A DNA stretch of 64,000 bases from an uncultured Roseobacter sp. (GCF_947492555.1 NZ_CANLNE010000007.1:10302-74301), one strand, 5' to 3'; counted from the stretch's first letter, positions 14,033-37,035 are shown. Notes: generated by a model not told the origin, from the sequence alone. Made by a program: numbers and translations.

Positions 14033-14626
14033 TTAATATGCCTCAGCTAAGCTCTGGGGTGTTGACAGCGCTTTGTCTGCTTCTTTTTTCGAGAACTCAT
14101 AAGTTTCGTCCGAATGACATTCGAGCAATCCTAGAGGCCCCAGCCCTGCATCGGATGTATAGCATTCCAGAAGCTTACGTACGATGACCGGTATCATCAT
14201 GCTTTGAGGTCCAAAGTGTTTTGCATCATGCGCGCTAAGCTTCATAACCAATCCGTTTCGCAGGTCAGCAACCGAAAACTGGGTCCACATAGATCGAAAC
14301 TCGCCCATGAAAAAATGCCATGCCTCAGCGCGTTCGGGATCCGCTGTCAACTGTTGGTGAATGAACCAAAGCGTAGGCACCTTGCGGAACTCAGGGTCCT
14401 TCTCGCGAAGAACCTCTCCAAAGCGTGTCAAAACAATCGGAAATCTTAGCTCAATGACACCAGATTTATGCAGCCATGAACGATACGCGGAAGCAAATGG
14501 CGCGCCGTATCTGAAGGGCTCTGCAAGCTCTTTGTCGCGAAGCGTTGGCTGTTTGAGTGCGTTAGCCAAGATACGAGACATGCGCTCTCTGTTCAATCCA
14601 AAATTACCGTGAAAAAATACAGTCAC
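14033..14626 (-). CDS. DUF4007-family protein (SspB/BrxA-like winged helix), short form (197 aa)
   Basis: GTG at 14626 with GGAGG RBS; RSWLHKSGVIE..LTRFG..DP....TLWFIHQQL....AEAWHFF matches the DUF4007 pattern as recalled. Confidence 0.7.
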   Translation of the reverse strand: MTVFFHGNFGLNRERMSRILANALKQPTLRDKELAEPFRYGAPFASAYRSWLHKSGVIELRFPIVLTRFGEVLREKDPEFRKVPTLWFIHQQLTADPERAEAWHFFMGEFRSMWTQFSVADLRNGLVMKLSAHDAKHFGPQSMMIPVIVRKLLECYTSDAGLGPLGLLECHSDETYEFSKKEADKALSTPQSLAEAY

Positions 14627-14730
14627 CCATTGATCCTCCGTATTAAGACTTGACGACAATCGAAGCACTCAATGCCAGTGCCCAGCAACCATGCCATCGC
14701 GAAGGCGAGCATATTCAAGAGGAAGAAAAA

Positions 14731-15798
14731 ATGACAGAGGAGCAAAGTTCGCCAGAGCTTGATCTGAGCGCTCTGGCGTTCGAGCAGAACCACCAAACCT
14801 TTCGCGCCCTCAACCACCAGATGTGGCAAATTCCACTCATCTCCATGACGCTGACAGGTGGATTATGGTTCGGGGTGTCCAAAGTAGATGGTTCACCATT
14901 CTTTCAAGTTGCGCTGTTGTTCCTGGCAACTGTCGGCAATGCCTGTTTATTTTTGGTGATTCAGCGTCTGCGCTACGTGATAGAGCAGACGCTCAATTGG
15001 TTAGAAACCCGTTCACCCGCAAACTTTGTTTCAGCCAAGGGCGATTGCTGGTACAACAGACCTCTGGTTGTGCGCCGGTCATTCCAGTCGATGCTCCTCC
15101 TCGCGTGTTTTACCAGCTTTAGCCTGCTGGTCATGACATGTTTTCAAATTGATTGGTCTCGGGTCGCGAATCCTATGACGAAAACTCCGGCATCCGCATA
15201 TTATGACCAACACGCGTTGGACTTGGCCGACAGCTATGAAGGCATCTCGGCGGATGCTGCGCACCCGGGTCTCGCGAATATCCTCAAGGAAGGCTTTGCA
15301 GACGCACGGGTGGATATTCTTGATGTAGGTGCCGGAACAGGCCGAGACTCGGCTTGGCTCGCTTTGCTCGGCCATCGGGTTGTTGCAGCAGAACCGTCGA
15401 GCGCCATGCTTCAGATCGCCCGCCACGCCCACAAAGACAGCTCCATTCAATGGGTCCGCGACGCCTTGCCCGGGTTGGACATCATTAGCAGCCATACAAG
15501 GAGGTTTGATATCATCGTTCTGAGCGCAGTTTGGATGCATATCTCCGAGGAGGACCGCCCGGCCGCTGTTTCTACGATTGCTTCGTTGTTGAAGCCTAGC
15601 GGTTTTGTCTACATCACCCTCCGTCTTGGTCCGGCAGACGCGGCACGCTCAATTTTTGAAGTATCTTTGGATGAGCTGACTGAACTGGCAGGAAGTAACG
15701 GCTTCCAGATACAATACCTTGAAACACGCCCTGACCTCCTCGGCCGCGACGAGATCACCTGGCAAAGCGTCCTGCTATCGACTGAGAGCAAAACTTGA
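14731..15798 (+). CDS. 3-TM membrane domain fused to a class I SAM-dependent methyltransferase
   Basis: Three hydrophobic segments in the first ~145 aa, no stop codon, then motif I ILDVGAGTGRDS, VVAAEPS, FDIIVLSAVWMHI. Confidence 0.8.
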   Translation: MTEEQSSPELDLSALAFEQNHQTFRALNHQMWQIPLISMTLTGGLWFGVSKVDGSPFFQVALLFLATVGNACLFLVIQRLRYVIEQTLNWLETRSPANFVSAKGDCWYNRPLVVRRSFQSMLLLACFTSFSLLVMTCFQIDWSRVANPMTKTPASAYYDQHALDLADSYEGISADAAHPGLANILKEGFADARVDILDVGAGTGRDSAWLALLGHRVVAAEPSSAMLQIARHAHKDSSIQWVRDALPGLDIISSHTRRFDIIVLSAVWMHISEEDRPAAVSTIASLLKPSGFVYITLRLGPADAARSIFEVSLDELTELAGSNGFQIQYLETRPDLLGRDEITWQSVLLSTESKT

Positions 15799-15906
15799 TC
15801 AATCGGCTCTGAATAGCCCATAACGTGGCCGTGCTGGGCTAGGGAAAAAGCACAAGAAAGACACATCTGACTTCCATGTTGCGTGTGCATGTTGCACCAT
15901 CGTTTC

Positions 15907-17799
15907 ATGAGCAAGTCTTTAAGATCTCTGACCTTTCCTTCAGATGTGGATACATCTCTAGATGACATCGATCAGGTGTTAATGAATCCATGCCTTGCTC
16001 ACTCAGTGTTCTATGATCGAGGTGTCGGGTACTTTACGTCGAGTTGGCTTCAACGTGTTTCAAGCGGCATAGCAGAGTTTGCGGGGAACGGCGGCAAGAT
16101 GCGGCTGATCACCAGTCCAAAGCTCAAGCCCGAAGATTGGGCAGCGATCAAACAGGGTGCGGACGCAATCCAAGACGACGTCCTGCTTCAGGCACTTAGA
16201 GACGAAGTTGATGAGCTCGAAAAAAGCGCAAGTTCCAAGCCTGTTCAGACACTATCATACATGATCGCGGAAAAGCTTCTGACCATCCGTATTGCTATAA
16301 CGACAGGCAAGTTGAGTGGAGACTACCATCCCAAACTTGGCATATTTCGTGATAGTGAGGATGAAGCGGTTGTCTTCCACGGTTCTCAGAACGAAACCGA
16401 GCAAGGCAGGCGCAATTTCGAGAGCTTAGATGTTTTCTTGAGTTGGGCTGACGCGCGCGACGCGTCACGTGTTCAGTCCCATCGAAACCGCTTTGAAAGA
16501 CTGTGGAACAACATTGATCCGAATGTCCAATGCTTCGATATCCCCGAGGCTATACGTCGGAATATCGCTCAGTTCTACCGGCCAAAAAGCGATTCGAAAG
16601 CAAAGGTCCTCAAAGACACAAGATGGCGCCACCAAGATGAGGCAGTTGAAAGGTTTCTAGCAGAGAAGAACGGCGTGCTCGAAATGGCAACCGGCACCGG
16701 TAAAACCCGGACAGCACTACGGATCATAGACAAGCTCACAACTCGCGATCTGGTCGATACTGTCATCGTGACCATGCGCGGCAACGACCTCCTAGAACAA
16801 TGGTTTCAGGCGCTTGTCACGGACTGCAACTGCAGGGTCTATCGGCAATTTGGCTCGCATCACGAAGGAGCGCGGTTTGTTGCGAGCCGCGGCAGAAGGC
16901 TACTCCTTGTTTCGCAGCACCACTTGCCGGAGTTTCTTTCGAGTGTTGAAGGGACAGCAGAGAGAACGCTGATTGTATGTGATGAAGTTCATGGATTTGG
17001 ATCGCCGGCACAGGTGACCACGCTTTCTGGTCTGGTGTCACCACTCAGCTACCGGTTAGGGCTGAGTGCGACCCCTGAAAGGGAGTATGATCAAGCTGGA
17101 AACGATTTCATTGAGAACGAAGTCGGCCCCATCATTTTCAAGTTTGAAATTGAAGATGCTATTCAACGCGGTATTTTGTGCGAATTTGATTACACGGCAT
17201 TAGAGTATGAATTGTCGGATGACGATCGGGCCGAAATCCGGAAAATCATCAAGCGCCACCATGCCCGTAGGGCGTCAGGTGAAGTCGTGAGCGACGAAGC
17301 ACTCTATCGTGACATTTCTCGTGTGCGAAAGGTTACGATAGAGAAGTTGGAACCTTTCAATGAGCATCTCACGAGCAAACCAGAGCTCTATGAACGCTCC
17401 CTGATCTTTGTAGAAACACGCAAATACGGTGAGCTTGTGCAAAGACTTCTTATGGATGCAGGAATTGTGTTCGGAACATATTACGAAGGTGATGAAGCGC
17501 AGCGCTTGTTGGATTTTGCGAACGGGCGACTGGACTGTCTGGTAAGTTGCCACCGGCTATCAGAAGGCATTGACATTAAGTCCGTCAAGAACATCGTTCT
17601 GTTTTCTTCAGCCCGGGCGAAACTGGAAACAATTCAGAGGCTTGGTCGTTGCCTGCGTACAGATCCCAACAACGAGGAGAAACGCGCGCATGTGCTAGAC
17701 TTTGTAGACTTTGGCTGTGATGACGATAGCGACAGCACAGACGTAAAGCGATATGACTGGCTGCGGAGCCTTAGCGCAACGCGAAAGGAAGAACAGTGA
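15907..17799 (+). CDS. pbeA: PLD-like nuclease + SF2 DEAD/DEAH helicase; PbeA-like (Dnd-associated restriction helicase)
   Basis: HPKLGIF...GSQNET PLD-type motif; MATGTGKT, DEVH, LSATP, QRLGRCLR; symbol assigned from architecture and synteny with dnd genes. Confidence 0.8.
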   Translation: MSKSLRSLTFPSDVDTSLDDIDQVLMNPCLAHSVFYDRGVGYFTSSWLQRVSSGIAEFAGNGGKMRLITSPKLKPEDWAAIKQGADAIQDDVLLQALRDEVDELEKSASSKPVQTLSYMIAEKLLTIRIAITTGKLSGDYHPKLGIFRDSEDEAVVFHGSQNETEQGRRNFESLDVFLSWADARDASRVQSHRNRFERLWNNIDPNVQCFDIPEAIRRNIAQFYRPKSDSKAKVLKDTRWRHQDEAVERFLAEKNGVLEMATGTGKTRTALRIIDKLTTRDLVDTVIVTMRGNDLLEQWFQALVTDCNCRVYRQFGSHHEGARFVASRGRRLLLVSQHHLPEFLSSVEGTAERTLIVCDEVHGFGSPAQVTTLSGLVSPLSYRLGLSATPEREYDQAGNDFIENEVGPIIFKFEIEDAIQRGILCEFDYTALEYELSDDDRAEIRKIIKRHHARRASGEVVSDEALYRDISRVRKVTIEKLEPFNEHLTSKPELYERSLIFVETRKYGELVQRLLMDAGIVFGTYYEGDEAQRLLDFANGRLDCLVSCHRLSEGIDIKSVKNIVLFSSARAKLETIQRLGRCLRTDPNNEEKRAHVLDFVDFGCDDDSDSTDVKRYDWLRSLSATRKEEQ

Positions 17800-18002
17800 C
17801 GAGTCCAAAAAAGAGAACCGCGAGCGAAGAAATCGCACTTGCGATTGCCGAAGCGGCGCAAGGCGTCTCGGTGAGCGTCACAGCTCAGACATCGACTGAG
17901 CGACTGCTGATTTCAACGCTGGATGTCATGCCGCCCACTCACAGGATCGAAAACACAATTGACGTCATACTTGAAGAGGACAGTTTGAGTGACAAGCAAT
18001 AA
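17796..18002 (+). CDS. small helical protein between helicase and ATPase; PbeB-like
   Basis: 68 aa, GTGA overlap with the helicase stop, overlaps the ATPase start. Confidence 0.6.
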   Translation: MTSPKKRTASEEIALAIAEAAQGVSVSVTAQTSTERLLISTLDVMPPTHRIENTIDVILEEDSLSDKQ

Positions 18003-19920
18003 CGTTCTTCTTCTTGGCTGGAATGCAAAGGGGCTTCGTGGCTATTTGCGCGATGCAAAAATTGCCCTAAAACCGGACAAGTATCGTCATGTCTTAGTTC
18101 AGATGCCAAACGGAACCGGCAAAACGACAACGATGGCTCTTTTGCGCTCAGCGCTTACGGGTCAACTAGATCCTTCGCTGTCGATCTCCTCACTTCAGGC
18201 TGACCGAACGACAAAGGAGGGACACTTTGAACTTCACTTATCAGTCTATGGCGAACGGCTATCCATTCGGCTCGAATGCGATTTCGAGATGGGGCGACAC
18301 TATTTCTACACAACCACCGTCGAAGCCGGACGGCAGAATGGGCACCTGCTGAGTACAGTCGACCCCGCATTGGCGGACGCTCTTGAGAGAAGTATCGAGC
18401 TGTTTGTGTTCGACGGCGAACTTGCGCAAAACATGCTTAAGGACGGTGCTGCTGCTGCGGACAGAGCTATTGAAGCCCTTTACAAGACCGATGCTTTTGA
18501 AGACCTGGTGAACAAAATTGGTGTCCTCAAAGAGAATCGAAAAAAGCTGAATAAGGATATCACCACCGCATCTGAGCAATCGGCGGTCAATCGGCTTGAA
18601 CGTGAGTATGAAGAGGCCAAAGAGATACTTGCGAAACTCACGCAAGAGAAGGACGGCTTGGATCGATCTCTTGCGAAGATCGACCGTCGGACCGCAGAGA
18701 TAACGGACCGCCTCGAAGAGCTCGGCCTCGAGGATCAAGCATTTAAGAATCGTCAAAAAGACATCGAAGATCGTGACCAAAAGGCGAGAAATGATATTTC
18801 GCGTTTCGCAACCGAAGCGGTTTCAAGTTTCAGATTGCCGCTAAGCCTTCATTCCCGTGTTGGAGAAAGACTTACAACACTCAACAACACATTGGAAACT
18901 AGGCGGCTTCCGCGCTCGTCAAAATCGTTCTTTGAGGAGCTCGCTACCAAGAAAAATTGTATATGCGGTGAAGAGATCGATGAGGCAAAGCGGAAATACA
19001 TTCTCTCACACGCAGACGATCATCTTGGTGATGAGCAAGTCCAAGTCATTAACGATATTAAGTACAAGCTCAAAGACGGATTCGACCGCCGTTGGTTTTC
19101 TGCCGTCGTCAATGACCTTAGTGAAGCTGAGGATCGTTTGACCAGCATAGCTCAGGAACGCGCTAGGCTGGATATCGAGAAGGCAGAAGCAGGCATGGAG
19201 GAGGTCGAAAGGCTTACATCCGAGCGAGAAGCACTTCAGGCAGAGCAAGCGCGGAAGTCTCAGGCTCTGCAATTCTTGACGGAGGTACCAATCTCGATAC
19301 ACGAGGCTGACTGGAAGAGAAACCTTCCAGCATGCAAGGAAGAGGAAGGCAAGCGCCGTAAGGCTTTCGAAATGGCTAGCGGCAATAACCGATACTTCAC
19401 AGCCGCGGACAAGTTAATTCGTGCAACTCAACGTGCTCGCAAGCTCGCGAAAGAACGGCTACAAGTGTTCGTGAAAGACCGAACAAACTCCCAACTCGAA
19501 AAAATCTTGGATAGCGAGATCATTCGTGTTTCCAGGATCGATGGCCGCCTTCATTTGGTGAATGAAGAAAACCTCCCGAAAGACAGCGCCAGCGAGGGCC
19601 AAAAACTTGCGGTGTGCTACGCATTTCTGACAGCCCTTTTGGCAGAAGCCCCGGCGCGCTTGCCGTTCATTGTAGATTCCCCTGCAGTCTCTCTGGACCT
19701 TGTTCTCCGGCAAAACGTTGGGGCTCTCATTCCCAAGATATTCGATCAATTAATTGTCTTCGTTATCTCCAGTGAGCGTGAAGGTTTCGCAGACTCGTTT
19801 GAGAAACGAACAGACACGCAGTTTGTCACTGCCTCAATCAATCAAGCTGACGGATCCGTTCTCATAGATGAAAGCAAGAGCACCTTCTTCCAATTCCAAA
19901 GCGGAGCGGTGTCCTCATGA
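17989..19920 (+). CDS. pbeC: Rad50/SbcC-like ABC ATPase with CxC hook; PbeC-like
   Basis: Walker A MPNGTGKTT, long coiled coils with central CICG, signature ASEGQK, Walker B FIVDSP; symbol assigned from synteny. Confidence 0.8.
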   Translation: MTSNNVLLLGWNAKGLRGYLRDAKIALKPDKYRHVLVQMPNGTGKTTTMALLRSALTGQLDPSLSISSLQADRTTKEGHFELHLSVYGERLSIRLECDFEMGRHYFYTTTVEAGRQNGHLLSTVDPALADALERSIELFVFDGELAQNMLKDGAAAADRAIEALYKTDAFEDLVNKIGVLKENRKKLNKDITTASEQSAVNRLEREYEEAKEILAKLTQEKDGLDRSLAKIDRRTAEITDRLEELGLEDQAFKNRQKDIEDRDQKARNDISRFATEAVSSFRLPLSLHSRVGERLTTLNNTLETRRLPRSSKSFFEELATKKNCICGEEIDEAKRKYILSHADDHLGDEQVQVINDIKYKLKDGFDRRWFSAVVNDLSEAEDRLTSIAQERARLDIEKAEAGMEEVERLTSEREALQAEQARKSQALQFLTEVPISIHEADWKRNLPACKEEEGKRRKAFEMASGNNRYFTAADKLIRATQRARKLAKERLQVFVKDRTNSQLEKILDSEIIRVSRIDGRLHLVNEENLPKDSASEGQKLAVCYAFLTALLAEAPARLPFIVDSPAVSLDLVLRQNVGALIPKIFDQLIVFVISSEREGFADSFEKRTDTQFVTASINQADGSVLIDESKSTFFQFQSGAVSS

Positions 19921-20441
19921 GTTCTGAACTGGTCACACGTGCACGTGGGTTTGTGCTCCACGAAGCCGCACGCGGCTACTTTGGCTACATCGATCAAAGA
20001 ATGTTCAGCAGAACCAGATCGTCAGATGCAGCGCGCGGTTCGCTTATTCTCTTTGATGCCTATTATGCAGGACTCATGCTGGGCCTCACCTACAGGAAAA
20101 CAGGTACTCCTGAGATGCTTGATCGGGCGGGCATATTCATTCAGACCTATCCGAATGAATATGAGCCGTACCGCGAGTACATTGCAGGCTTGCTCGTTGA
20201 TGCAGAGGTTACTGCTCTTCATTCTGAAGATTACTCCGAACAACAGCTTGAGAAGTCGATCGCGAAGCTTCTTCAAGTCGCCTCTCCTACGCGCTTGTCC
20301 CCGGAAGGCATGCACATCCTGAATCTGTATGCCGCGGGAGGCTTTGAGCTTCTTCGTAGCAATATGGGCGCCAAGCCGTCTGATCCGTCAAATTTCTTAA
20401 TTCGCTACCAAGCTTTACTCGAAAATGAAACTGGGCAGTAA
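19917..20441 (+). CDS. hypothetical protein with DndE-like character; PbeD-like (174 aa)
   Basis: ATGA overlap with the ATPase; C-terminal NLYAAGGFELL resembles the YAxGGxExL motif of dnd-associated DndE-like proteins. Confidence 0.65.
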   Translation: MSSELVTRARGFVLHEAARGYFGYIDQRMFSRTRSSDAARGSLILFDAYYAGLMLGLTYRKTGTPEMLDRAGIFIQTYPNEYEPYREYIAGLLVDAEVTALHSEDYSEQQLEKSIAKLLQVASPTRLSPEGMHILNLYAAGGFELLRSNMGAKPSDPSNFLIRYQALLENETGQ

Positions 20442-20447
20442 CTTTTG

Positions 20448-22274
20448 ATGGAACGAGTCTCGGACCTACTCTGCCAGCGCGCGACACCGACTACCGTATC
20501 TGGTCTTTTTGGCGGAATGACTCTCTTTCGCGTGCCAGCGTACCAACGTGCATATGAGTGGACGGATGAGCAGATAGACGCCTTCATCGACGATGTTCGC
20601 AGGTGTTGGCAAAAGCGTATCAACGGTGAACGTGAGCGACACTTTTTTGGATCCGTGGTAACCGCGCCTCGAGACCCTGGCGGTCTGGTTCGCCCACGAC
20701 GGGATGTGATAGACGGGCAGCAGCGGTTTGCCACTTTTCTCCTTTTCGTGGCGGCGCTACGGCAACACTGTTTGCTGGCAGCGGCCGAGTTTGGTGCGGA
20801 TGATGCACAGCGCGGAACCGCCTTGAGCACAATGGCGGAAACTCTCCAGTTCCGTTTCATCATGAGCAGAGATCTCGATTTCATGGAGGCCAGGGACGTT
20901 TATCCCCTGACCTTGAATGAGACCGATGACGCCTATTTCAAAGCATTGTTGCGAGGCGATCATGTAGAAGAAGTAGCTCAATCTCACTACCTGCTAAAGG
21001 CTGCGTTTGACGCATGTTTTGCAATGCTTCAGGGGCATCGCGAGGCGACCGGGTCCACCGCGCTTGAATTCAATGCGCTGAACCAATTCTACGCCAGTGC
21101 TCTCGAAGACTGGGAAGTCGTTCATATTGAGGCTAATGCACCGGAGCACGCCAGCCTCATTTTCAGGGTGTTGAACAACAGAGGTCTTCCCGTCAGCGAT
21201 TGTGATCTTCTCCGGGCAACCACCATGGAACGGGCAGAACAAAGGCTGGAACCAGCAGAGCGAGATGAGCTATCTGATGCTTGGAAGGAAATCGGTGGCA
21301 TTGCCGAAAACCCCGACACCTATCTTCAATTGGCATATCAGACTCGTACGGGAAAACGCTTCAACACAGCGAGGACATCAACAGAGTTTGAAGCGATGCA
21401 TTTTGAGGAGCTTTCAAGCGGTGATCTTCTCGGTGCAGCAGAGGCAAGGTCACTTCTTCAGAGTGTGCAAACCCTGAAGACCGACATGGTAATGATGAAG
21501 GCTTTGACCGGTGGCGACATCGCCGGTGGGGGTCTGCAATTGACACCGGTCATGGCTCATCGACTGGCATTCACCCTAGGAGACCTAAAGCAGCACTGGA
21601 TACTCCCCCTGGTCTGCGCATCGCGAAGCCTCAATGCCGATCATCGCGAGCGACTGCTTTGTGTTTTGGAGCGGTTTGCATTCCGGTATGGGGTCTTGGC
21701 GCGCGCGCGGATTGCGGAATACGATCGCAGGATGGGGCCCATTATTACACTTCTGAACACATCGCCAGCTGACTATCGATTGCCCGAAGTCGAAGCGATT
21801 TTGACGGATCTTCTAGATAGATACGCGACCAGAGAGGCGATGGAGCGTCAATTAGATGGGCTCGAGTACGAGCGACACAAGAAAGAGTTGAAGTACATTC
21901 TAGCCATGAGCGAATTCATGTCGGCGTGGTATGATGGCCAGGCGAACGGTCGACCAACCGTTCATGCGCCCAATGTACCGATCGATATCCGCGCAATGAC
22001 CCTGGAGCATATCAGTCCGCAGAACCCTGAAGAGGCAGGGGCAGAAATGCTACCTCACTTGCATAAACTTGGAAACCTTACCTTGCTCAGCCAAGATGAG
22101 AATGATCGTGCCGGAAACAGGCCTTTCGTTGACAAGAAGCCGGTCCTTCAAGGTTCTCGCCTGTCGATCAATCAGAACATCGCCGAGGAGGATAAATGGG
22201 GGGCCGAACAGGCCATCGCGCGACAAGACGCATTGCGAGATCAAGCGATGAGAGTATTTGATTTAACGTTTTGA
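20448..22274 (+). CDS. DUF262 (DGQQR) + DUF1524 HNH nuclease; GmrSD/SspE-like
   Basis: VPAYQRAYEW, IDGQQR, FRVLNNRG; C-terminal LEHISPQ...LGNLTLL..EN. Confidence 0.88.
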   Translation: MERVSDLLCQRATPTTVSGLFGGMTLFRVPAYQRAYEWTDEQIDAFIDDVRRCWQKRINGERERHFFGSVVTAPRDPGGLVRPRRDVIDGQQRFATFLLFVAALRQHCLLAAAEFGADDAQRGTALSTMAETLQFRFIMSRDLDFMEARDVYPLTLNETDDAYFKALLRGDHVEEVAQSHYLLKAAFDACFAMLQGHREATGSTALEFNALNQFYASALEDWEVVHIEANAPEHASLIFRVLNNRGLPVSDCDLLRATTMERAEQRLEPAERDELSDAWKEIGGIAENPDTYLQLAYQTRTGKRFNTARTSTEFEAMHFEELSSGDLLGAAEARSLLQSVQTLKTDMVMMKALTGGDIAGGGLQLTPVMAHRLAFTLGDLKQHWILPLVCASRSLNADHRERLLCVLERFAFRYGVLARARIAEYDRRMGPIITLLNTSPADYRLPEVEAILTDLLDRYATREAMERQLDGLEYERHKKELKYILAMSEFMSAWYDGQANGRPTVHAPNVPIDIRAMTLEHISPQNPEEAGAEMLPHLHKLGNLTLLSQDENDRAGNRPFVDKKPVLQGSRLSINQNIAEEDKWGAEQAIARQDALRDQAMRVFDLTF

Positions 22275-22276
22275 GT

Positions 22277-23449
22277 TCAGGCCGCGCTGCCAACGCGGCC
22301 CCGCCTGATGTCAGCAACCGCTTGAATGAACAGTTCAGCCGTTGTCTCAATCTGTTCGTCGGTCGTGCCATAGCCCAAGCCCAGTCGAAACGCGTTTTTT
22401 GTACGCTCCGTTCCTGCACCAAACATGGCCTCAAGGACATGAGAGTCCTCTACTGATTGCGTCGAACAAGCGCTGGAGCTTGAAAAGGTGATCTGGTCGG
22501 TCAGACGTCGCATCAGCGCAAAGGGCTCAACCGATGGGATCGAAAGATTCAGAGAATTGGGAATTCGAGATGCTTCATTCCCATTCACCCATGCCCCCGT
22601 TTCTTCTACAAGTCGGCGCTCCAGCTTATCCCTCAGGTCATTGATGCTCTCAGCATCGCCGAGGCGGGATTGTCGCAATTCAAAAGCCGCCCCAAGCCCA
22701 ACAATCCCGGCTGTGTTGAGCGTTCCAGAGCGAAGTCCTCGCTCCTGACCCCCTCCCCGGTTGATCGGCTCAAGCGCCACATGCGGGCGGCGCCGACGAC
22801 AATAGAGGACCCCAATTCCCTTGGGACCATACATTTTGTGACCAGATAGGCTTGCAAGGTGGATGTTTGCGTCTTGAACGTCGATCTTCTCGTAGGCTAT
22901 CAACTGTGTCAGATCGCTGTGAAACAGAGCACCGTATCGCTCACACAAATACCCAATTTCTGAAAGCGGGTGGCGCACGCCGGTCTCGTTGTTGGCGGCC
23001 ATACAGCTTACGAGTGCCACCCCTTTTTTGAGTTCTGCCTCGAGCCGGTCCAAATCAATCCTGCCCTGTACGTCCACTGAAAGGACGATCACGTCTTCGG
23101 CTGGACTTGAATGTTTTGCCGCTTCAAGCACAGAAGGGTGTTCTGTTGCGACCGTGATAATGCGTTGGTTGTCCGATCGGCGCGGACTGGCGACCACACC
23201 TTTGATGGCGAGATTGTTCGCCTCGGTTGCGCCGCTTACAAAGACTATGTCGGCCGGTCTTGCGCCAATTCCCTTCGCGATATGTTCGCGCGCGCGTTCG
23301 ATGGCTGCGGCTGCGGCGGCGCCATCAGGGTGGTCTATTGCCGAGGGGTTGCCTGTCAATTCGCGCATGGCGTCAACAACACGATCAATCACCATCTCAT
23401 CGACTGGCGTTGAGGCGTTGTGATCAAGATAAATTGACCCGGGAGTCAT
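22277..23449 (-). CDS. dndA: cysteine desulfurase DndA (IscS family)
   Basis: YLDHNASTP, SGHKMYGPKGIG (PLP lysine), SSSSACS (catalytic Cys); last gene of the dnd operon. Confidence 0.92.
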   Translation of the reverse strand: MTPGSIYLDHNASTPVDEMVIDRVVDAMRELTGNPSAIDHPDGAAAAAAIERAREHIAKGIGARPADIVFVSGATEANNLAIKGVVASPRRSDNQRIITVATEHPSVLEAAKHSSPAEDVIVLSVDVQGRIDLDRLEAELKKGVALVSCMAANNETGVRHPLSEIGYLCERYGALFHSDLTQLIAYEKIDVQDANIHLASLSGHKMYGPKGIGVLYCRRRRPHVALEPINRGGGQERGLRSGTLNTAGIVGLGAAFELRQSRLGDAESINDLRDKLERRLVEETGAWVNGNEASRIPNSLNLSIPSVEPFALMRRLTDQITFSSSSACSTQSVEDSHVLEAMFGAGTERTKNAFRLGLGYGTTDEQIETTAELFIQAVADIRRGRVGSAA

Positions 23450-23823
23450 GCCGCATCTCCTGCCAGAAGCCTTGCTGCATCAGCTGGCGAGTTTATGCGA
23501 ATTGCGATGTAACCAATGCCGCGGTCGATATGGCATCTCAGGCGTCGCATTAGGTCTTCGTCATCTAATTCTGCTCCGCTTTGCCCTTGCTCGACAAGTA
23601 TCAGCATTGAAAGGAATATCGGTTGGTCGGATCCAAAGAGCGTATAGGCGTTAAATTCCTGCCCATTTTCCTCCGGTGGAACCATGTCGCCAACTGGTCC
23701 TGTCTCGAGTGAGGCGGTCAGAGCCATCCGGCACAGGAGGTTCGGTGTGAGGCCGCTGCGTTGACGCAACATACGGAGACGGCCAGTTGCCTCAGTTGAT
23801 ACTCTGAGCTTTGTAAAATGCAT
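23446..23823 (-). CDS. dndE: DNA phosphorothioation protein DndE
   Basis: LRVSTEATGRLRMLRQRSGLTPNLLCRMAL, RCHIDRG; downstream of dndD. Confidence 0.9.
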   Translation of the reverse strand: MHFTKLRVSTEATGRLRMLRQRSGLTPNLLCRMALTASLETGPVGDMVPPEENGQEFNAYTLFGSDQPIFLSMLILVEQGQSGAELDDEDLMRRLRCHIDRGIGYIAIRINSPADAARLLAGDAA

Positions 23824-25763
23824 CAGACTAGTTCCGCTGAAAGATCGCCAACCGGAAAAAGTGTCGTGCGTCTTGCTTCCGCGGTCGCCTCAAGCTTGTA
23901 GGTCCGTGCTACATGCGCTCCGAGGGACTTGGCTAGGGAGGGTGTCATTTCCGTATCGGTGCAAAGCAAGATTACCTGATGGCTTGCAGTTGGCAGATAG
24001 TCTCGAACAATTGCCAATCGGTGGCTTTGGTCAAGCCTTGAGAAAGGGGTGTCGATCACGATCGGCAGTTGACGGCCGCTTGTCTTTCCCAAAGCCCAAA
24101 GCATGGAAATCGCATAAATCTGCCGTTCTCCTGCAGATAAGCTGTTCTTCTCGATTGTTATTCCATCACTGCCAATCAGGCTCACGCTAAAATCCGCCGG
24201 GTCGATTTCGACGCTAGAAACCAATGATTTCTTGCGGCTCAATCGGTTGAAACAGTCAACGAACTCGGCCTTTAATCTGCTGATCCTGTCCTCGAGGAGC
24301 GCAACTCCAAAAGAAGAAAGTGCGGTTTGCGCGCGCACCGCGAGAGCGATCCCGCGCTCTTCTTGAGCCAATTTCTTCAGAGCAGCTTCCTCCGACCTGA
24401 ACTTGCGCTCTATCGCTTCAATATCACGCAAAAGCCGATCTATTCCTTCGTCGCAGAACTGCAGATCACGTTCCAAACCCCCAAGAGTGCGCTCAGCCTC
24501 TTTCAAAGCGGAAAGCGCTTGTTCGGCTTGTCCCGTGTCGAACCCCTCGAGCTCCCTTTTTAACTTGGCGCGAAGCTCTCTGTTTCTGTCAAACCTGTCG
24601 GCCAAGCTTGTTACTTCTTCCTGCCGCCCATCAGTCAGACAGTCCAGACGCCGCAAAATCCAATCTGGTTCTGCCAACAGACGTGGTCCCTGCCCTCCTG
24701 CATCTCCCTTCGTCACAGCACGCAAATCATCAAAATGCTGACTGGACCAGATGTTGCCTTTCTCGTTGGGTATGCTTGATTGCCGCTCAAACGCATCAAT
24801 GAAGGCGCGAATCGCGATCGCGTGAGTGCCCTGCCGCGCCTCAGTACAGGTTTGGTAAAAATGCTGTACCAATGTGGGCGCTAAACCTAGCGGCAACAGA
24901 TCGTTGGCCGCGCGCTTCAGTTGCGTGCTCAACTCGGACTGGTCTATCTCTGCGCTTCGAAGTTTGGTCAGGACGTCTTCGCGCGACAGTGCCTGCCGAC
25001 CACCTTCGTTGCGATAAGCGGCCTCGGATCGCTCCACCCGTCGCGCGGCTTGATCGCATTTGCTTTGCAGTTCGGCGCGAAGATCCTGTTGGGTTGCAAG
25101 CTCTTGTCTGAGGCGCTCCTGCTCGGACAGGAGGCGATCAATATTACCAGATGAATCCTGGTCTGCTCGCCGACTAGTATAGACAGTCAGGTCTGTCTGC
25201 AGCTGGTCGATAATGTCCAATCCCAGAAGCGATCGGATCGCATCTCTCAGCCCGAGGCTGCCATCGTCATCCGCGATCTCTTGTATCTTCTCGCCATCAA
25301 AAAAGAACAACTGTGAAAGACCGGGAGGCACAAGTTCTTCGACGTATTGCGCATATTCAGCCCGTTCCAGGTCAGAGATCGGGTGGCCTTCCCTAATAAG
25401 GTCAAGTGTTTCGACCACGGATTTTCCGCGGGATGACCAAGCGCGTTTGACCGTGTAGTTGACTTGCTGACCATTCTCCACGCGAACGAATGACAGCGTG
25501 ATGGCGGCCTCGCGCGTTGCCGCTGTCGCACTGATTTTTCTTAACAGATGCTCTTCATATGTTGATTGTGCAGTGCGTGGGCCAAGCGCTCTGCGACCGT
25601 ACAATACGAGCCGGATTGCATCGAGGAAGGTGGTTTTTCCGCCGCCATTATGCCCCAAGATGGCAACCACATTGGCACCCTCAGCCGGCACCGTCTCAAG
25701 GTCGAACGTGTGGCAACCGTCATACAGACCGACGTTCTCAAGGACTAACTCACGAAATCTCAT
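23823..25763 (-). CDS. dndD: DNA phosphorothioation ATPase DndD
   Basis: LENVGLYDG, Walker A GHNGGGKTT, LFFFDGEKI, LSAGERQ, IVIDTPFSRLD. Confidence 0.93.
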   Translation of the reverse strand: MRFRELVLENVGLYDGCHTFDLETVPAEGANVVAILGHNGGGKTTFLDAIRLVLYGRRALGPRTAQSTYEEHLLRKISATAATREAAITLSFVRVENGQQVNYTVKRAWSSRGKSVVETLDLIREGHPISDLERAEYAQYVEELVPPGLSQLFFFDGEKIQEIADDDGSLGLRDAIRSLLGLDIIDQLQTDLTVYTSRRADQDSSGNIDRLLSEQERLRQELATQQDLRAELQSKCDQAARRVERSEAAYRNEGGRQALSREDVLTKLRSAEIDQSELSTQLKRAANDLLPLGLAPTLVQHFYQTCTEARQGTHAIAIRAFIDAFERQSSIPNEKGNIWSSQHFDDLRAVTKGDAGGQGPRLLAEPDWILRRLDCLTDGRQEEVTSLADRFDRNRELRAKLKRELEGFDTGQAEQALSALKEAERTLGGLERDLQFCDEGIDRLLRDIEAIERKFRSEEAALKKLAQEERGIALAVRAQTALSSFGVALLEDRISRLKAEFVDCFNRLSRKKSLVSSVEIDPADFSVSLIGSDGITIEKNSLSAGERQIYAISMLWALGKTSGRQLPIVIDTPFSRLDQSHRLAIVRDYLPTASHQVILLCTDTEMTPSLAKSLGAHVARTYKLEATAEARRTTLFPVGDLSAELV

Positions 25764-27208
25764 AAGTTCGGCGCCTCGTTTGCCGCGCCCTCTTCTTCCA
25801 GCTCGGCAGCCAAATTTGCCAGAACTTCGTCCTCCGAGCGCCATTCCTTTTCAAGGATGCTTGCAATGCGCGTGTGGATCGATGACCTGCGACGCATGCC
25901 CTGAACCGAACGTTCGGCATCCAGCAGTTCGCCCATCATTTGGATTGGAAGGTCGTGTTCCTGGCAAACTTGGCGCAAAATGTCGCCATCGGCGGACGAA
26001 AACTCGAAGTCGTCGGCTTCGTGCGCATGGAGTTCTTTACCGAGCACATCCTTTACAATCTGATAGGCACTATTGGCCCAATCACCCAACTCACGTCGCC
26101 AAATGCGCTGAATCTCGTGGATTTCTGCTTCATGGATCAGCGTCGGAGCAGGCTCATCTGTGACGAGATTCGCCGCCTCCCTCTGTGCTTCCAACAACCT
26201 TTTGAGCACCTCTTGGCGGAAATCGCGTTTGTAGGGCCCGGGTATCAACCCATCGCCTGAGCGATTGAGCGTTATCTTCCCAGTGCGCCTGCGGAAATCT
26301 CGCACGACTTTCTTGCGCTCTGGATCCAGCGTCTCCGCCAGGAAGTCTCTAACGTCCAAGAGCGGTTCGAGCCATTCCTCGCCGTTGTCGACCATCGCCT
26401 CCATTGCTTTGTCCTTTGTGACGACAGTGCATACCCAGCAACCAAACCGGGAGTTGCCGCAGCTTTCGGTGTTTTTATCGACCACCAGCGGGCACTCACC
26501 CGCCTGAGCGTTGCGATACATCTTGAGAAGCTGACGATTGTCAGCTCCCCACGGTGACGGCGTTTGCAGGATATAGTCCCAAACGTCATCAACCGAGAGC
26601 GCCTCAATCGGTGTGAAAACATACGCACCCAAGAGCGACGAATGCCGCGAAAACAGACTCCCCTCCAGCCGGTGAAGCGCCATTACTTGCGCGCGTGTTG
26701 CGCTTTCAGCGCTGCGAACACCAAGCACCATAACAACTTCGCCAAACTCTGCGACGCGGCTTTTTATGAATGCATTGGCAGGGTCTATCTTAAGTCGTTC
26801 AGTGCACCACCGGAAGCGACGTGATGGAGCCGGATAGCCGCGTCCTATTAGGTTGACCCAGAAGCTATCATTTACATCAGGCACAACCTTGTGAGCCGAA
26901 ACCGGCATGCCCTGTGCTTTCGCTGCGTCGTTTATGCGCGTGAGTGCACTATCGATATAGTCCACAATAACGGGTGTTTCGACCAGCGTATCAGAGCTCA
27001 AGACATAGATTGGTTTTTCGCGTTCGGATTTCGGTAGTGCCTGCAGTGCGCGCCATATCATCTGCAATGCGCAGGTCGAGTCCTTTCCACCACTGTAGCC
27101 GATCACCCAAGGGCGCTTGTCGTTGCAATAGGCAACGCGAATCCGTTCTTCGAGTGCATCGAACGTAAGCGCTGCGTCAGGTTCGGTCGCCTTTTTTTCT
27201 CTACTCAT
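25760..27208 (-). CDS. dndC: DNA phosphorothioation sulfurtransferase DndC (PAPS reductase family)
   Basis: WVIGYSGGKDS, RWCTERLKI, SCGNSRFGCWVCTVV. Confidence 0.95.
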   Translation of the reverse strand: MSREKKATEPDAALTFDALEERIRVAYCNDKRPWVIGYSGGKDSTCALQMIWRALQALPKSEREKPIYVLSSDTLVETPVIVDYIDSALTRINDAAKAQGMPVSAHKVVPDVNDSFWVNLIGRGYPAPSRRFRWCTERLKIDPANAFIKSRVAEFGEVVMVLGVRSAESATRAQVMALHRLEGSLFSRHSSLLGAYVFTPIEALSVDDVWDYILQTPSPWGADNRQLLKMYRNAQAGECPLVVDKNTESCGNSRFGCWVCTVVTKDKAMEAMVDNGEEWLEPLLDVRDFLAETLDPERKKVVRDFRRRTGKITLNRSGDGLIPGPYKRDFRQEVLKRLLEAQREAANLVTDEPAPTLIHEAEIHEIQRIWRRELGDWANSAYQIVKDVLGKELHAHEADDFEFSSADGDILRQVCQEHDLPIQMMGELLDAERSVQGMRRRSSIHTRIASILEKEWRSEDEVLANLAAELEEEGAANEAPNL

Positions 27209-28290
27209 GCCGCGACCTGACCTTGCGCTTCCATGGCCGCCTTCATTCTTGCTTCCAATGGCAATCCAATAGTTTCGAACAAGACAGCCGCTCCAAGAAG
27301 AACGCTCCTGCGCTGGCCATTCATGCGTGCGTCGTTCATGACTTTGCCTTCCCAGAGTTCCGCATTTCGTCTCGACCAATCCAAGGAAGAAAGCGACTTT
27401 AGCTTCTCAGGCCATTCCTGAGGATAGGCATCAATCAGGGTTCCCCCGAGGACGCCGAAGGCTTGAAGCAAAACGCCGTGGGAGTGCACCGTGTTTTGCC
27501 GAAGATCATGCGCGTTCAAGCTTCCGCCATCCAGTCTTTGCCAGTCGTCCAAAACGTCGTAGAGCGCATTCCAGAATTGTACCACGAGATCGAGCGTTTC
27601 CTCGCCAAATCTGTCTCCTGCTGGACCAACCATCCATTCATGTGCCTGCTGCAAACTGGACAATGTGTAGAGCTTGGTTGTTCGGTTTGAGAGTGATTTT
27701 TTCTCAAGCTCTAAAAACCGATTGAAGAATGGCACAATTCGAAACACGTCGACGGATAGTCCGGCGAGCGGATCCCTTTTGTCGTATAGAATATTCAGCG
27801 AATTTGATGGGCGAACGGCGTTCATATTTAAATCTGCAAACATCTGTTGACTTCGCTCAAGTCCACGGTCCGCAAAGATCACAACTGATATCGTTTCATT
27901 TTCCAAGGCTGGCCTTGTCTTCAACGCATCTTCAATTGCCGCTCTGCGGTGTTGGCCGTCATTTAGAATGATCCGCGCATCCATCGCAAAGCTGAGCGTA
28001 CCAACATTCTTCAGTGCCCCATCGTTGCCCGCTGCGGTGAATGTCAGGTCCCCATCAACTGAAGCGCAAAGCGAGGAAAGGATGTAATTGTCCCAATTCT
28101 CAGCAAGGTAATTTGCGATCTGAGGTACCCTTGCCTTTGAAAGCACCCGTTGGGCACGCAGGTCAGGCGGCAGATCATCGCCGTCGAAAATGAACAGCCT
28201 CGGCACCATTTTCATGGGGACCATAACAGTGTAGTACGCAGTACGAGACTGAACGCCCCGGATCGCCTCGAATGTCAGCTCGTTTGCCAT
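27205..28290 (-). CDS. dndB: DGQHR-domain regulator DndB
   Basis: RAQRVLSKAR, ILNDGQHRRAAI, QQMFADLN; first gene of the dnd operon with GGAGG RBS. Confidence 0.92.
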   Translation of the reverse strand: MANELTFEAIRGVQSRTAYYTVMVPMKMVPRLFIFDGDDLPPDLRAQRVLSKARVPQIANYLAENWDNYILSSLCASVDGDLTFTAAGNDGALKNVGTLSFAMDARIILNDGQHRRAAIEDALKTRPALENETISVVIFADRGLERSQQMFADLNMNAVRPSNSLNILYDKRDPLAGLSVDVFRIVPFFNRFLELEKKSLSNRTTKLYTLSSLQQAHEWMVGPAGDRFGEETLDLVVQFWNALYDVLDDWQRLDGGSLNAHDLRQNTVHSHGVLLQAFGVLGGTLIDAYPQEWPEKLKSLSSLDWSRRNAELWEGKVMNDARMNGQRRSVLLGAAVLFETIGLPLEARMKAAMEAQGQVAA

Positions 28291-28486
28291 CGCTACCTCC
28301 TAGGCTGGAAGTTAACGGACGTTAGTGTGGAAGTCTATACGCAGGTCTAAATCGTGAGCTCTGCGAGCCTAAGAAGGGTAGTTTTCTTGCCGCATCACAT
28401 GGCATCATGAGCATGCAACGGGGATCATTTCCGATACAGAAGTGCAGTTGGCTACTCTGACTGATGAGCGATGCATTTATCAGAGG

Positions 28487-34509: not shown

Positions 34510-35364
34510 TTATTGGTCCGGCACCGGCTGCTCTCCCAAATCAGCCCGCGCGTCGCGAATAATTGCCCAGGACGAGTACAGGAACAGCGCCGCGATACCG
34601 AAGGCGACGATCAGGTCCGGCCAGCCACTGCCGAACCAGGCGACAAGTCCGGCCGCGATCACCACAGCGACGTTGCCGATGGCGTCGTTGCGCGAGAACA
34701 GCCAGACCGCCCGCATGTTGGCGTCTCCCTTCCGGTGCTTCAGAAGCGGCAGGACGGCGAGGATATTGACGATCAGCGCACCCACGGCGAAGGCACCCAT
34801 CAGCCCCGCCTCGGGGGCGGCCTGATTCAGGACGCGCCAGAACGTGCCAGCCACAACCCCAAGTCCCAGAAGGCCAAGGAACACGCCCTGGATCATGGCG
34901 GACCGGGCGCGCCACGTCAGGCTCCAGCCGATGGCGAGCAAGCCTAGAAACGTGATCGCCCCATCGCCAAGGAAATCGAGGGCATCCGCCTTCAGCGCCT
35001 GAGAGTCGGACAGGAAGCCGCCCGCCATTTCCACAACGCCGTATCCGAGATTCAGCGCAACCACGATCCAGAGCGCCCGACGGTAGGACGGGTCTTGGTG
35101 GGCTGGATCGGTCGAGGCGTCGTCGCCCTCAATCCGTTCGAATCCGTAGCCTGTCGCCTCTAGGGCCGGACGCACCTGCGGAAGATCGTTTTCCGCGATG
35201 CGCAGCGTCATTATGTGGGTTGCCGCCGAGACCTTGACGTTCTCCGCCGCGACGCCAGCCGACCGCGCAGCGCGCTCGATCTCGGCCGCGTCCTTCGCAC
35301 AATCCATCCCTTGCACCCGCATCCGGATCGGCGCGTTCTGCTCACTGGTTCCGGGCGTGTTCAT
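34510..35364 (-). CDS. CDF-family cation transporter with N-terminal HMA-like domain
   Basis: MRVQGMDCAKD HMA-like motif; SQALKADALDFLGD and WLFSRNDAIGN CDF motifs. Confidence 0.88.
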   Translation of the reverse strand: MNTPGTSEQNAPIRMRVQGMDCAKDAAEIERAARSAGVAAENVKVSAATHIMTLRIAENDLPQVRPALEATGYGFERIEGDDASTDPAHQDPSYRRALWIVVALNLGYGVVEMAGGFLSDSQALKADALDFLGDGAITFLGLLAIGWSLTWRARSAMIQGVFLGLLGLGVVAGTFWRVLNQAAPEAGLMGAFAVGALIVNILAVLPLLKHRKGDANMRAVWLFSRNDAIGNVAVVIAAGLVAWFGSGWPDLIVAFGIAALFLYSSWAIIRDARADLGEQPVPDQ

Positions 35365-36290
35365 GAGATCGCCTCACCATGCCCGCGCCCGCCGAACTCG
35401 GAAGGGTCGCCACAGGCGTGTCGCGCACATTCAAGCTCCAACGTCGTGTGCTCGATGTCGAACCTGTCGGAGAGGACGGACTTGATCCGCTCCTTGATCG
35501 CGTCGGCGTCATTCCAGCGGCCCTCCTCGATCACCACATGGGCGTCGAGCGCGGCGCAATGCTCGTCCATCTGCCAGAAATGCGCGTGGTGGATGCCGGT
35601 CACGCCGGGCACCCCGCGCACGGCGTCGAGAACGCCGCGCGTCTCGATATCTGGCGGCGATCCGAGCATCAGGATGCGGATGACCGGGCCGATCTCCCGG
35701 AAGGATTGCCAGAGGATATAGCCCGCAATCATGACCGTCACGATAGGATCGATCAGCCGCCAGTCGTAGAGCAGGATCAGTGTTCCGGCGAGGATCACGG
35801 CGATGGAGCCAAGCGCGTCAGCGACGTTGTGCAGGAACGCCGCGCGTATGTTCACGCTGGATTTGGACATGCGATAAGTCAGCAGTGCGGTAGCCGCGTC
35901 CACGATCAGCGCGATTCCCGCGATGATCACGATCAGCCATCCCTCGACAGGCTGCGGATCGACAAAGCGCATCGCTGCCTCGTAAAGCAGGTAGAGACCG
36001 ATCACGATAAGGGTCGTGTAGTTGATGAGCGCTGCAACCACCTCCACCCGGCCGTAGCCGAAGGTCATGTCCGCATCCCTCGGTCGCCGTGCGATCTTGC
36101 GCGCTGCAAAGGCAATGATGAGCGAAATCGCGTCTGAGAAGTTGTGCAGCGCATCGGCGATCAGTGCGAGAGAGCCGGAGACGATCCCGCCAATGATCTG
36201 CGCGACCGTCAGTCCAAGATTGACGGCAATCGCAGCGAACACCCTCCGGTCGCCCGCCTCGGGGTCTATGTGGACGTGGTCATGCGGCAT
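35361..36290 (-). CDS. CDF-family Co/Zn/Cd efflux transporter (CzcD-like)
   Basis: SLALIADALHNFSD, TFGYGR, AAFLHNVADALGS, C-terminal HAHFW/HVV/HTTLELE. Confidence 0.92.
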   Translation of the reverse strand: MPHDHVHIDPEAGDRRVFAAIAVNLGLTVAQIIGGIVSGSLALIADALHNFSDAISLIIAFAARKIARRPRDADMTFGYGRVEVVAALINYTTLIVIGLYLLYEAAMRFVDPQPVEGWLIVIIAGIALIVDAATALLTYRMSKSSVNIRAAFLHNVADALGSIAVILAGTLILLYDWRLIDPIVTVMIAGYILWQSFREIGPVIRILMLGSPPDIETRGVLDAVRGVPGVTGIHHAHFWQMDEHCAALDAHVVIEEGRWNDADAIKERIKSVLSDRFDIEHTTLELECARHACGDPSEFGGRGHGEAIS

Positions 36291-37035
36291 TAGGTGTGCC
36301 CCCATGCGAATGTGTTGAAACTGCTTGTGGCTTCAAGCGACCCGAACGAAATGCTCGAACTCGACGGTTCATCCAATGACGAATGATGTTTCGATAGAGG
36401 AAGCCCCGAACCCAACCGAACTCCTGGGCATGTTTTTCGTAGACGTCGTCAGGGGTCTCAAAGAGGCCAAAATCCTGAACGATCCCAGACTTTTGAATGT
36501 AGGTGCCGTCGCCTTTCCATTCGACCGGCGGCGCGCTTAAGCAATCCGTGCCGACACCGTAGCCACACAGGCTTTCCCGTCCATCGAAGGCGGTCTGCAA
36601 AGCTGACAGAAACCGGCTGTCCAGGATGAACCCCTCAAGGTCGATCCAACGTCCATCCATTTCGACCTCCACCCAGGAGTGCAGGATTTCCAAAGGCGCG
36701 ATGGGATAGACAAGCTCGGGCACCACGCCGCGCTGAAGGCCCTTGTGGATCGTAAAGCCGTGAAGCCGACACCGGACTCCGAGTGCGCGCAGGAGCGCCA
36801 TGAGCAGCGTGCCTTTCGTGTTGCACTGTCCGTACCCGTCAGACAGCACTTCGGTGGCCGGAATGTCATCCGCGCGATTGTAGCCGAACAGGATTTCGTT
36901 GCGGACAAAATCATAGACGACCCCGATCCGGTCATGGGTCGCGAGGGCAGACCAACCACGCGCGGCAATCAGCCCTTGAATGGACTGCGCTCCAAAGTCG
37001 AGAAGCGGAGTTGCGAAGAGATGTTCACGGGACAT
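36280..37035 (-). CDS. transglutaminase-like (papain-fold) protein
   Basis: GYGQCNTKGTLLMALLRALG, HSWVEV, WIDLEG: Cys-His-Asp triad present. Confidence 0.85.
   Translation of the reverse strand: MSREHLFATPLLDFGAQSIQGLIAARGWSALATHDRIGVVYDFVRNEILFGYNRADDIPATEVLSDGYGQCNTKGTLLMALLRALGVRCRLHGFTIHKGLQRGVVPELVYPIAPLEILHSWVEVEMDGRWIDLEGFILDSRFLSALQTAFDGRESLCGYGVGTDCLSAPPVEWKGDGTYIQKSGIVQDFGLFETPDDVYEKHAQEFGWVRGFLYRNIIRHWMNRRVRAFRSGRLKPQAVSTHSHGGTPNAA

Follow-up and report, generated by a model that had tools for sequence, protein, structure and literature searches.

A plasmid-borne dnd operon facing a pbe-dndI operon in a Roseobacter: a recurrent arrangement with an associated membrane methyltransferase

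A stretch of 64,000 nucleotides from an uncultured Roseobacter sp. (GCF_947492555.1, NZ_CANLNE010000007.1:10302-74301; hereafter the window, with positions counted from its first letter) carries an island of 14.3 kb (14033-28290) in which a complete phosphorothioate (PT) modification operon, dndB-C-D-E-A, faces five coupled genes of an effector operon, pbeA-B-C-D-dndI. Taken as a whole, the island is probably horizontally acquired PT defence cargo within the transfer region of a conjugative plasmid, in which PT writing by DndACDE under DndB would be combined with two co-expressed readers and an optional accessory block, formed by a methyltransferase (MTase) with three transmembrane (TM) segments and a short DUF4007 protein.

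In the usual description of PT immunity, a single modification module is paired with a single effector module (DndFGH, PbeABCD, DndI or SspE). The window locus and its relatives point to a stable and widespread architecture in which two PT effectors would be produced from one transcript facing the modification operon; conserved gene order in at least 12 other loci places the arrangement far beyond chance.

The two facing operons and their recurrence

The locus had been outlined in an original prediction, made from the sequence alone, as a 12-gene unit with a complete dndBCDEA operon facing a five-gene coupled operon, two further genes (DUF4007 and TM-methyltransferase) to the left and no dndFGH. 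All 12 open reading frames (ORFs) were found where that outline had put them, by ORF listing and family scans (Table 1), and no dndFGH genes are present within the locus. The dnd operon runs on the minus strand from 28290 down to 22277 and the pbe-dndI operon on the plus strand from 15883 to 22274; in both, adjoining genes overlap or stand 1-6 bp apart, and where the operons converge the stop codons of dndI and dndA are separated by 2 bp.

The Pbe-like module was borne out for PbeA and PbeC, which match PADLOC models with their motifs intact. PbeA joins an HKD nuclease motif to an SF2 helicase and PbeC carries a CxC zinc hook, the features by which these proteins are recognized. PbeA matches Pfam ResIII/Helicase_C and, weakly, PLDc_2, and its motifs H149-x-K151...G167-S-x-N170, GTGKT and DEVH are kept in homologs down to 29% identity; C324-I-C326-G, at mid-length in PbeC, is kept in all homologs compared (five divergent ones). 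The published pbeABCD was defined as a PLD-helicase, a 66-aa protein, an ATPase and a 152-aa protein (PMC6459918). A later article redefined Pbe as the CxC ABC ATPase system: PbeB is treated there as a small protein that evolves fast and PbeD as a cognate of DndE with two RHH domains, and 936 bacterial taxa are reported to have the system in tandem with DndDE (PMC10853773). The 68-aa protein in the PbeB position evolves fast (53-71% identity vs 68-83% for the neighbouring genes), and its counterpart in a divergent locus of the same genus (L023; comparison loci are given as L numbers) has a strong Pfam Sp-CxC match (6.7e-24), which supports the positional equivalence of the 68-aa protein to PbeB. 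The 174-aa protein in the PbeD position shares 27-82% identity with proteins of 157-176 aa located 3' of the CxC ATPase in other loci (L003-L009, L014, L016, L018, L023 and L030).

The fifth and last gene of the operon starts 6 bp after the PbeD-position stop if ATG 20448 is used. Its product, for which an SspE/GmrSD-like nuclease had been proposed, is, as judged by profile and structure-sequence alignment, a DndI homolog: the PADLOC Orf5 model (PDLC02697) is matched over 585/585 positions with 1093 bits, SspE models give at most 72 bits, and the best solved relative is Salmonella DndI (PDB 9JFL), aligned over residues 20-606 vs 12-594. Y33, equivalent to the PT-sensing Y25 of DndI, as well as D90GQQR and E521H...N...N, are kept in homologs down to 29% identity; a tyrosine equivalent to Y33 is common across DUF262 proteins generally. 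ORF5, which adjoins dptFGH in the dpt/dnd cluster of Salmonella Cerro 87 (PMC2978375), was renamed DndI by Tang et al., who reported PT-sensing defence with IscS-DndBCDE (PMC11662687). Identity with SspE was considered and rejected: the SspE structures 6JIV and 7DRS align to residues 24-122 only, about 100 N-terminal residues (E 8e-7), and no sspB, sspC or sspD is present in the island. The Ssp-like effectors of the original prediction were thus not upheld, since the nuclease is a full-length homolog of DndI, a characterised Dnd effector, and the DUF4007 protein is partial and lacks SspC and SspD.

On the opposite strand, DndB, DndC, DndD and DndE all score above the NCBIfam equivalog cutoffs. 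With the starts revised to ATG 27208 for DndC (ATGA overlap with the dndB stop) and ATG 25763 for DndD, the five dnd genes are translationally coupled. DndD has no CxC motif.

Two features of this operon can be mentioned on their own account. The C-terminus of DndC (ORF residues 466-510) corresponds to the Pfam Sp-DndD module (28.5 bits, cutoff 27.2), usually a small protein accompanying DndD, and the fused module also matches PADLOC PbeB; given this fusion, the modification arm (DndC::SP-DndD-DndE) mirrors the effector arm (PbeA-SP-PbeC-PbeD). Just upstream of the dndB start, at 28301-28334, the 12-nt direct repeats TAGGCTGGAAGT and TAGTGTGGAAGT, 22 nt apart, are a candidate operator, of a size small enough to arise by chance.

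The arrangement is not confined to the window. In a scan of one genome per species, pbeA-B-C-D-dndI was found facing dndA-E-D-C-B in seven other Rhodobacteraceae species (Jannaschia, Aliiroseovarius, Sulfitobacter, Roseicyclus, Pseudorhodobacter, Celeribacter and Pseudaestuariivita; DndI identity 69-83%), and this ten-gene layout occurs on chromosomes as well as plasmids, the unit of Aliiroseovarius and Celeribacter being chromosomal and adjoining dapF and a radical-SAM (UPF0004) gene. Among 400 Rhodobacterales genomes sampled, Orf5-type genes were present in four others, about 1%. At greater divergence (29-45% identity), the effector operon of five genes again adjoins dnd genes: the five ORFs are coupled in L023 (PbeA 40%, PbeC 28%, DndI 29% identity), the operon is present in the TARA contigs L029 and L030 (PbeA 52%, DndI 37-39%), and L104-L106 (DndI 43-44%) carry a helicase, a 66-aa protein, a 641-aa ATPase, a 174-aa protein and DndI beside dndBCDE(A) in 3/3 loci sampled. 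Wherever the upstream side is visible, over DndI identities of 29-83%, dndI directly follows the PbeD-position gene. The recurrence of the layout, also at such deep divergence, argues for the pbe-dndI operon as a distinct and stable subtype and against a chance juxtaposition.

Table 1. Genes of the island and the two backbone genes at its limits (window coordinates).
Feature	Coordinates	Strand	Evidence
VirB11 ATPase; left limit of the island on the plasmid backbone	12935..13921	+	NCBIfam VirB11 1.1e-70
Short DUF4007-family protein, 197 aa	14033..14626	-	Pfam DUF4007 1.7e-10
TM-methyltransferase, 355 aa, three-TM N-terminal domain and class I SAM methyltransferase	14731..15798	+	Pfam Methyltransf_25/11/12/23
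PbeA, PLD/HKD-type nuclease domain and SF2 (DEVH) helicase	15883..17799	+	PADLOC PbeA 3.5e-199 over 15-616
PbeB-position protein, 68 aa	17796..18002	+	Position and size only
PbeC, CxC ABC ATPase	17989..19920	+	PADLOC PbeC 3.2e-21; Walker A NGTGKT
PbeD-position protein, 174 aa	19917..20441	+	Homology to same-position proteins
DndI homolog, DUF262 NTPase (DGQQR) and DUF1524 HNH nuclease	20448..22274	+	PADLOC Orf5 E=0; PDB 9JFL 1.6e-37
DndA-type cysteine desulfurase; final gene of the dnd operon	22277..23449	-	PADLOC DndA 6e-124
DndE	23446..23823	-	TIGR03184 88 bits, cutoff 72; Pfam DndE
DndD ABC ATPase, 646 aa from M28	23823..25763	-	TIGR03185 481 bits, cutoff 246
DndC sulfurtransferase	25760..27208	-	TIGR03183 549 bits, cutoff 290; Pfam PAPS_reduct
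DndB (DGQHR) regulator	27205..28290	-	TIGR03233 404 bits, cutoff 328; DGQHR at residue 111
VirD4 coupling protein; right limit of the island on the plasmid backbone	28487..30409	-	NCBIfam VirD4 5.5e-115

Plasmid setting and accessory genes

The contig from which the window is taken (C7, 83,662 bp, in a genome of 4.44 Mb) has a terminal overlap of 77 bp, from which it is considered a circular plasmid of about 83.6 kb. A near-identical plasmid is represented by an 83,670-bp contig of another assembly from the same genus (L002; 96-100% aa identity over the 16 genes compared). The island is inserted among transfer genes, with VirB4, VirB6, VirB9, VirB10 and VirB11 in its left flank and VirD4 and a relaxase in the right one, the MobA/VirD2-type relaxase domain being encoded by the gene next after virD4. 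Inside the island GC content is 0.50-0.55, as against about 0.58-0.62 on either side. No tRNA gene is present in the window, no repeat >20 nt was seen at either edge of the island (a repeat common to both edges was not searched for), a megablast search of PLSDB plasmids with the island gave no match, and a promoter and terminator scan of the locus gave nothing above shuffled expectation. Beyond the relaxase, at window positions 34510-36305, the plasmid carries two neighbouring cation-efflux genes (CDF, zinc-transporter type).

The unit again adjoins virB11 in Jannaschia, Sulfitobacter and Pseudorhodobacter (L003, L005 and L007). In the first two the cargo lies between virB11 and virD4 and is inverted with respect to the type IV secretion backbone, with the dndB side toward virB11, whereas in the window plasmid the pbe side is toward virB11; in Pseudorhodobacter the dndB side is also toward virB11 and the locus ends before any virD4. 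The presence of inverted cargo at the same backbone site suggests a cargo hotspot or an inversion.

The TM-methyltransferase gene shares its strand with pbeA and precedes it by 85 bp. The family comprises 361 full-length database homologs of about 350 aa, in which the TM domain is near-invariant (MWQIPL..MTLTGGLWFG motif). Among the family matches TehB scored above its cutoff and the others were generic class I, TPMT or UbiG-type. An AlphaFold2 model (pLDDT 85) consists of three long helices and a Rossmann methyltransferase domain, and its fold matches in the PDB are small-molecule, lipid, peptide or tRNA methyltransferases (cg3271, CypM, NmbA, TehB, TPMT, UbiG and PmtA). No DNA methylase was found among the 50 PDB fold matches listed and no DNA-methyltransferase family was matched in Pfam or NCBIfam; the modelled fold indicates that the enzyme most likely acts on a non-DNA substrate. 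Membership in MADS was rejected, the 'mad2' match covering the generic methyltransferase domain only.

Its genomic neighbourhood was surveyed through the contexts of database homologs and a metagenome scan. All seven homologs with retrievable genome context (45-75% identity by tblastn; among them Ruegeria, Seohaeicola, Agrobacterium, Sphingobium, Paragemmobacter and Mesorhizobium) directly adjoin Dnd, CxC/Pbe or DndC-like/ABC/DndE-HerA cassettes, with position and orientation that differ from locus to locus. In the metagenome set, limited to the 38 loci of >=10 kb out of 80 fetched, a PT-associated marker accompanies the gene in 33/38 and a tblastn-detectable core marker in 20/38. Across 400 genomes drawn evenly from the class, the methyltransferase query was matched by its C-terminal domain only. 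Of the 11 pbe-dndI loci whose upstream side is visible, 5 have the gene, and L030 repeats the order of the window, with an HNH gene, the TM-methyltransferase, pbeABCD-dndI and then the facing dnd operon. The TM-methyltransferase is a recurrent accessory of PT-type systems, and an optional one in pbe-dndI loci.

The same survey brought to light further arrangements of the family. In L013, L017, L019, L026-L028, L031 and L042-L043, a compact cassette encodes a PAPS-reductase-like protein (~386 aa), a 66-aa protein, an ABC ATPase (~690 aa), a DndE-HerA fusion (~510 aa) and the TM-methyltransferase, with integrases on its flanks in those genome loci that are annotated; it appears to be a separate variant of a Dnd-like system. 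A 148-aa protein of L091 (10010-10456) consists of the family's TM domain alone; its gene is flanked by those of a cysteine desulfurase and a HIT protein, and PAPS_reduct lies upstream of the group and an ABC ATPase downstream of it. This locus had first been scored as "DndA + HIT" only, before Pfam revealed PAPS_reduct, the cysteine desulfurase and the ABC ATPase.

The DUF4007 gene, with a GTG start at 14626 and a GGAGGA ribosome-binding site, is divergent from the methyltransferase gene at about 104 bp and has virB11 as its other neighbour. The Pfam match covers profile positions 43-150 of 288 only, and PADLOC SspB matches are weak; no PDB sequence match was obtained and no SspC or SspD partner lies beside the gene. 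The identification as SspB was rejected on the partial domain and on the missing sspC and sspD neighbours. The protein was found in five records, two of them of this plasmid; its homologs are confined to the twin plasmid L002, L006 (Roseicyclus), L011/L012 (Ruegeria) and L024, a metagenome contig, and in each the gene diverges from that of the methyltransferase. Elsewhere the slot is filled by an HNH, HNH-HIT or DndB-like gene, and this variety suggests an interchangeable accessory position. The protein is best regarded as a sporadic accessory that probably binds DNA. At the edges of Dnd/Pbe loci a further pair was seen, a protein of ~170-210 aa and a DndB-like (PF14072) protein of ~410-430 aa (L005 3202-5018, L014 6012-7933 and L018 12290-14036), which in Sulfitobacter takes the place of the methyltransferase and DUF4007 genes.

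Proposed mechanism and competing explanations

In the explanation favoured here, PT would be introduced into the DNA of both host and plasmid by DndA, DndC, DndD and DndE, with DndB as the regulator of this step. A single transcript would provide two PT readers, a PbeABCD-type system with an HKD nuclease-helicase and a DndI-type NTPase-nickase, whose functions are taken from published homologs. For Salmonella DndI, PT stimulates the ATPase and frees the protein from self DNA, and unmarked DNA is nicked (PMC11662687); the window homolog may likewise let go of PT-marked self DNA and nick unmarked DNA, and Pbe, whose defence together with Dnd has been published (PMC6459918), may cleave unmarked invaders or block their replication. 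The membrane methyltransferase and the short DUF4007 protein would form an optional accessory block heading the effector operon.

Several observations weigh against this explanation. The 68-aa protein has no Pfam, PADLOC, PbeB or Sp-CxC match, and the 174-aa protein matches no Pfam, PADLOC PbeD or DndE model; a shallow hhalign comparison of the latter with DndE gave a probability of 0.1, a PDB profile search gave no DndE, a PADLOC scan of 24 members of its family gave no match, and its AlphaFold2 model (pLDDT 41) was too low in confidence for a fold search. The best match of DndA, TIGR03235, reaches 357 bits, under the equivalog cutoff of 480, and PADLOC SspA scores almost level with PADLOC DndA; the position in the operon fits DndA. 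DndH was not found in a whole-genome search, run without a positive control. Sequencing runs matching the locus are DNA metagenome runs only, with no RNA run among them. Of 11 pbe-dndI loci, 6 lack the TM-methyltransferase and most lack the DUF4007 protein; as they are missing from many loci, the two genes would not be needed for the core function. Finally, PMC10853773 argues that CxC systems can work independently of Dnd, for which reason the Pbe arm may not read PT.

A bolder form of the favoured explanation, tentative as a whole and rather doubtful, would make MTase-PbeABCD-DndI one effector machine, with DndI as the PT-gated nickase for a 'non-cleaving' Pbe and the three-TM methyltransferase family as a dedicated, undescribed component. 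The methyltransferase might then have a sulfur-containing or membrane substrate, or it might position the machinery at the membrane, where foreign DNA enters.

Alternatively, independent systems may have been stacked at one site, so that Dnd with DndI would form one PT-based system, the CxC/Pbe cassette would be self-standing or triggered in another way and would not read PT, and the methyltransferase and DUF4007 protein would be unrelated cargo. This is consistent with the CxC systems reported without Dnd and the doubts raised about Pbe as a restriction partner of Dnd in PMC10853773, with a Pbe-like cassette that has no dnd genes within 8 kb (L011), with Pbe-Dnd loci that lack dndI (L014, L016, L018, L034 and L074), and with the weak DndCD-PbeAC co-evolution signal of Xiong et al. 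(rho 0.107). Set against these are the 6-bp distance between dndI and the PbeD-position stop, in a position kept over the whole range of DndI identities, and the PT-dependent Pbe defence that Xiong et al. demonstrated experimentally, and stacking is considered unlikely. Still less probable is a second self-mark, that is, a DNA base methylation placed by the methyltransferase and read by the Pbe arm: DNA methylases, coupled cytosine methylases included, frequently accompany CxC systems (PMC10853773), Xiong et al. count 105 PbeAC loci with DndCD and 'MTase' both within 10 kb, and the gene stands close upstream of pbeA on the same strand, but the family and fold matches described above include no DNA methyltransferase, the three-TM domain is highly conserved and most pbe-dndI loci lack the gene. 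A reading of the DUF262-DUF1524 protein as a type IV enzyme of the GmrSD/BrxU kind, one that would cut modified-base phage DNA and not sense PT, is very improbable, since its Pfam GmrSD_N/GmrSD_C and PADLOC HEC-06 and type IV mREase matches are outweighed by the Orf5/DndI models (1093 bits vs 190), the end-to-end alignment with 9JFL, the placement beside dnd in every locus examined and the kept PT-sensing tyrosine, common as the latter is in DUF262 proteins.

If two PT readers are indeed co-expressed, as favoured here, the pbe-dndI locus offers a clean genetic system in which to ask whether Pbe and DndI cooperate, back each other up or have different targets, and whether Pbe is truly non-nucleolytic. 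A PT-tracking methyltransferase family unlike DNA methylases raises the question of its role, and the siting in the transfer region of conjugative Roseobacter plasmids bears on the spread of PT systems and on possible roles in plasmid addiction or exclusion.

Comparison with known systems

Dnd with Pbe (PMC6459918), Dnd with DndI (PMC11662687) and mixed nuclease neighbourhoods (PMC10853773) have been published separately, and no paper discussing DndI and Pbe together was found in the literature searched. The parts are known; the recurrent dnd and pbe-dndI combination and the linked methyltransferase family are undescribed in that literature. The novelty claimed in the original prediction holds for the combination and not for its Dnd-Pbe and Dnd-DndI components, and PADLOC "Orf5" already models the clade of the nuclease. 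The doubt raised there, that the extra genes might not accompany dnd and pbe elsewhere, is answered in part: the DUF262-DUF1524 gene recurs in every related locus, the methyltransferase does so in some loci and the DUF4007 gene is sporadic.

SspABCD-SspE resembles the locus in that SspE has the same DUF262-DUF1524 plan and SspB is a DUF4007 protein; SspE, however, has 771 aa and aligns at its N-terminus only, and the window has a partial DUF4007 protein of 197 aa and no sspC or sspD. The gene neighbourhoods of PMC10853773 likewise show DndDE and CxC-DndE systems in tandem with extra nucleases, but the accessible part of that article mentions neither a TM class I methyltransferase nor a constant fifth gene of the CxC cassette that encodes a ParB/DUF262-HNH protein. 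In the IscS-DndBCDE-DndI system of Salmonella enterica Cerro 87 (PMC11662687), DndI is homologous to the window protein over its full length in the HMMER alignment and its gene likewise stands beside dndBCDE; there dndI is co-transcribed with dndFGH, whereas in the window it ends the pbe operon of a locus that has no dndFGH. In Dnd-Pbe, first described in haloarchaea (PMC6459918), a PT-writing dnd operon likewise stands beside a four-gene cassette of the same order (HKD-SF2 helicase, ~66-aa protein, CxC ABC ATPase and ~150-175-aa protein). The small proteins of the window match no Pbe or Sp-CxC model and, compared with that system, the window locus is bacterial, plasmid-borne and equipped with dndB, and has dndI appended as its fifth effector gene.

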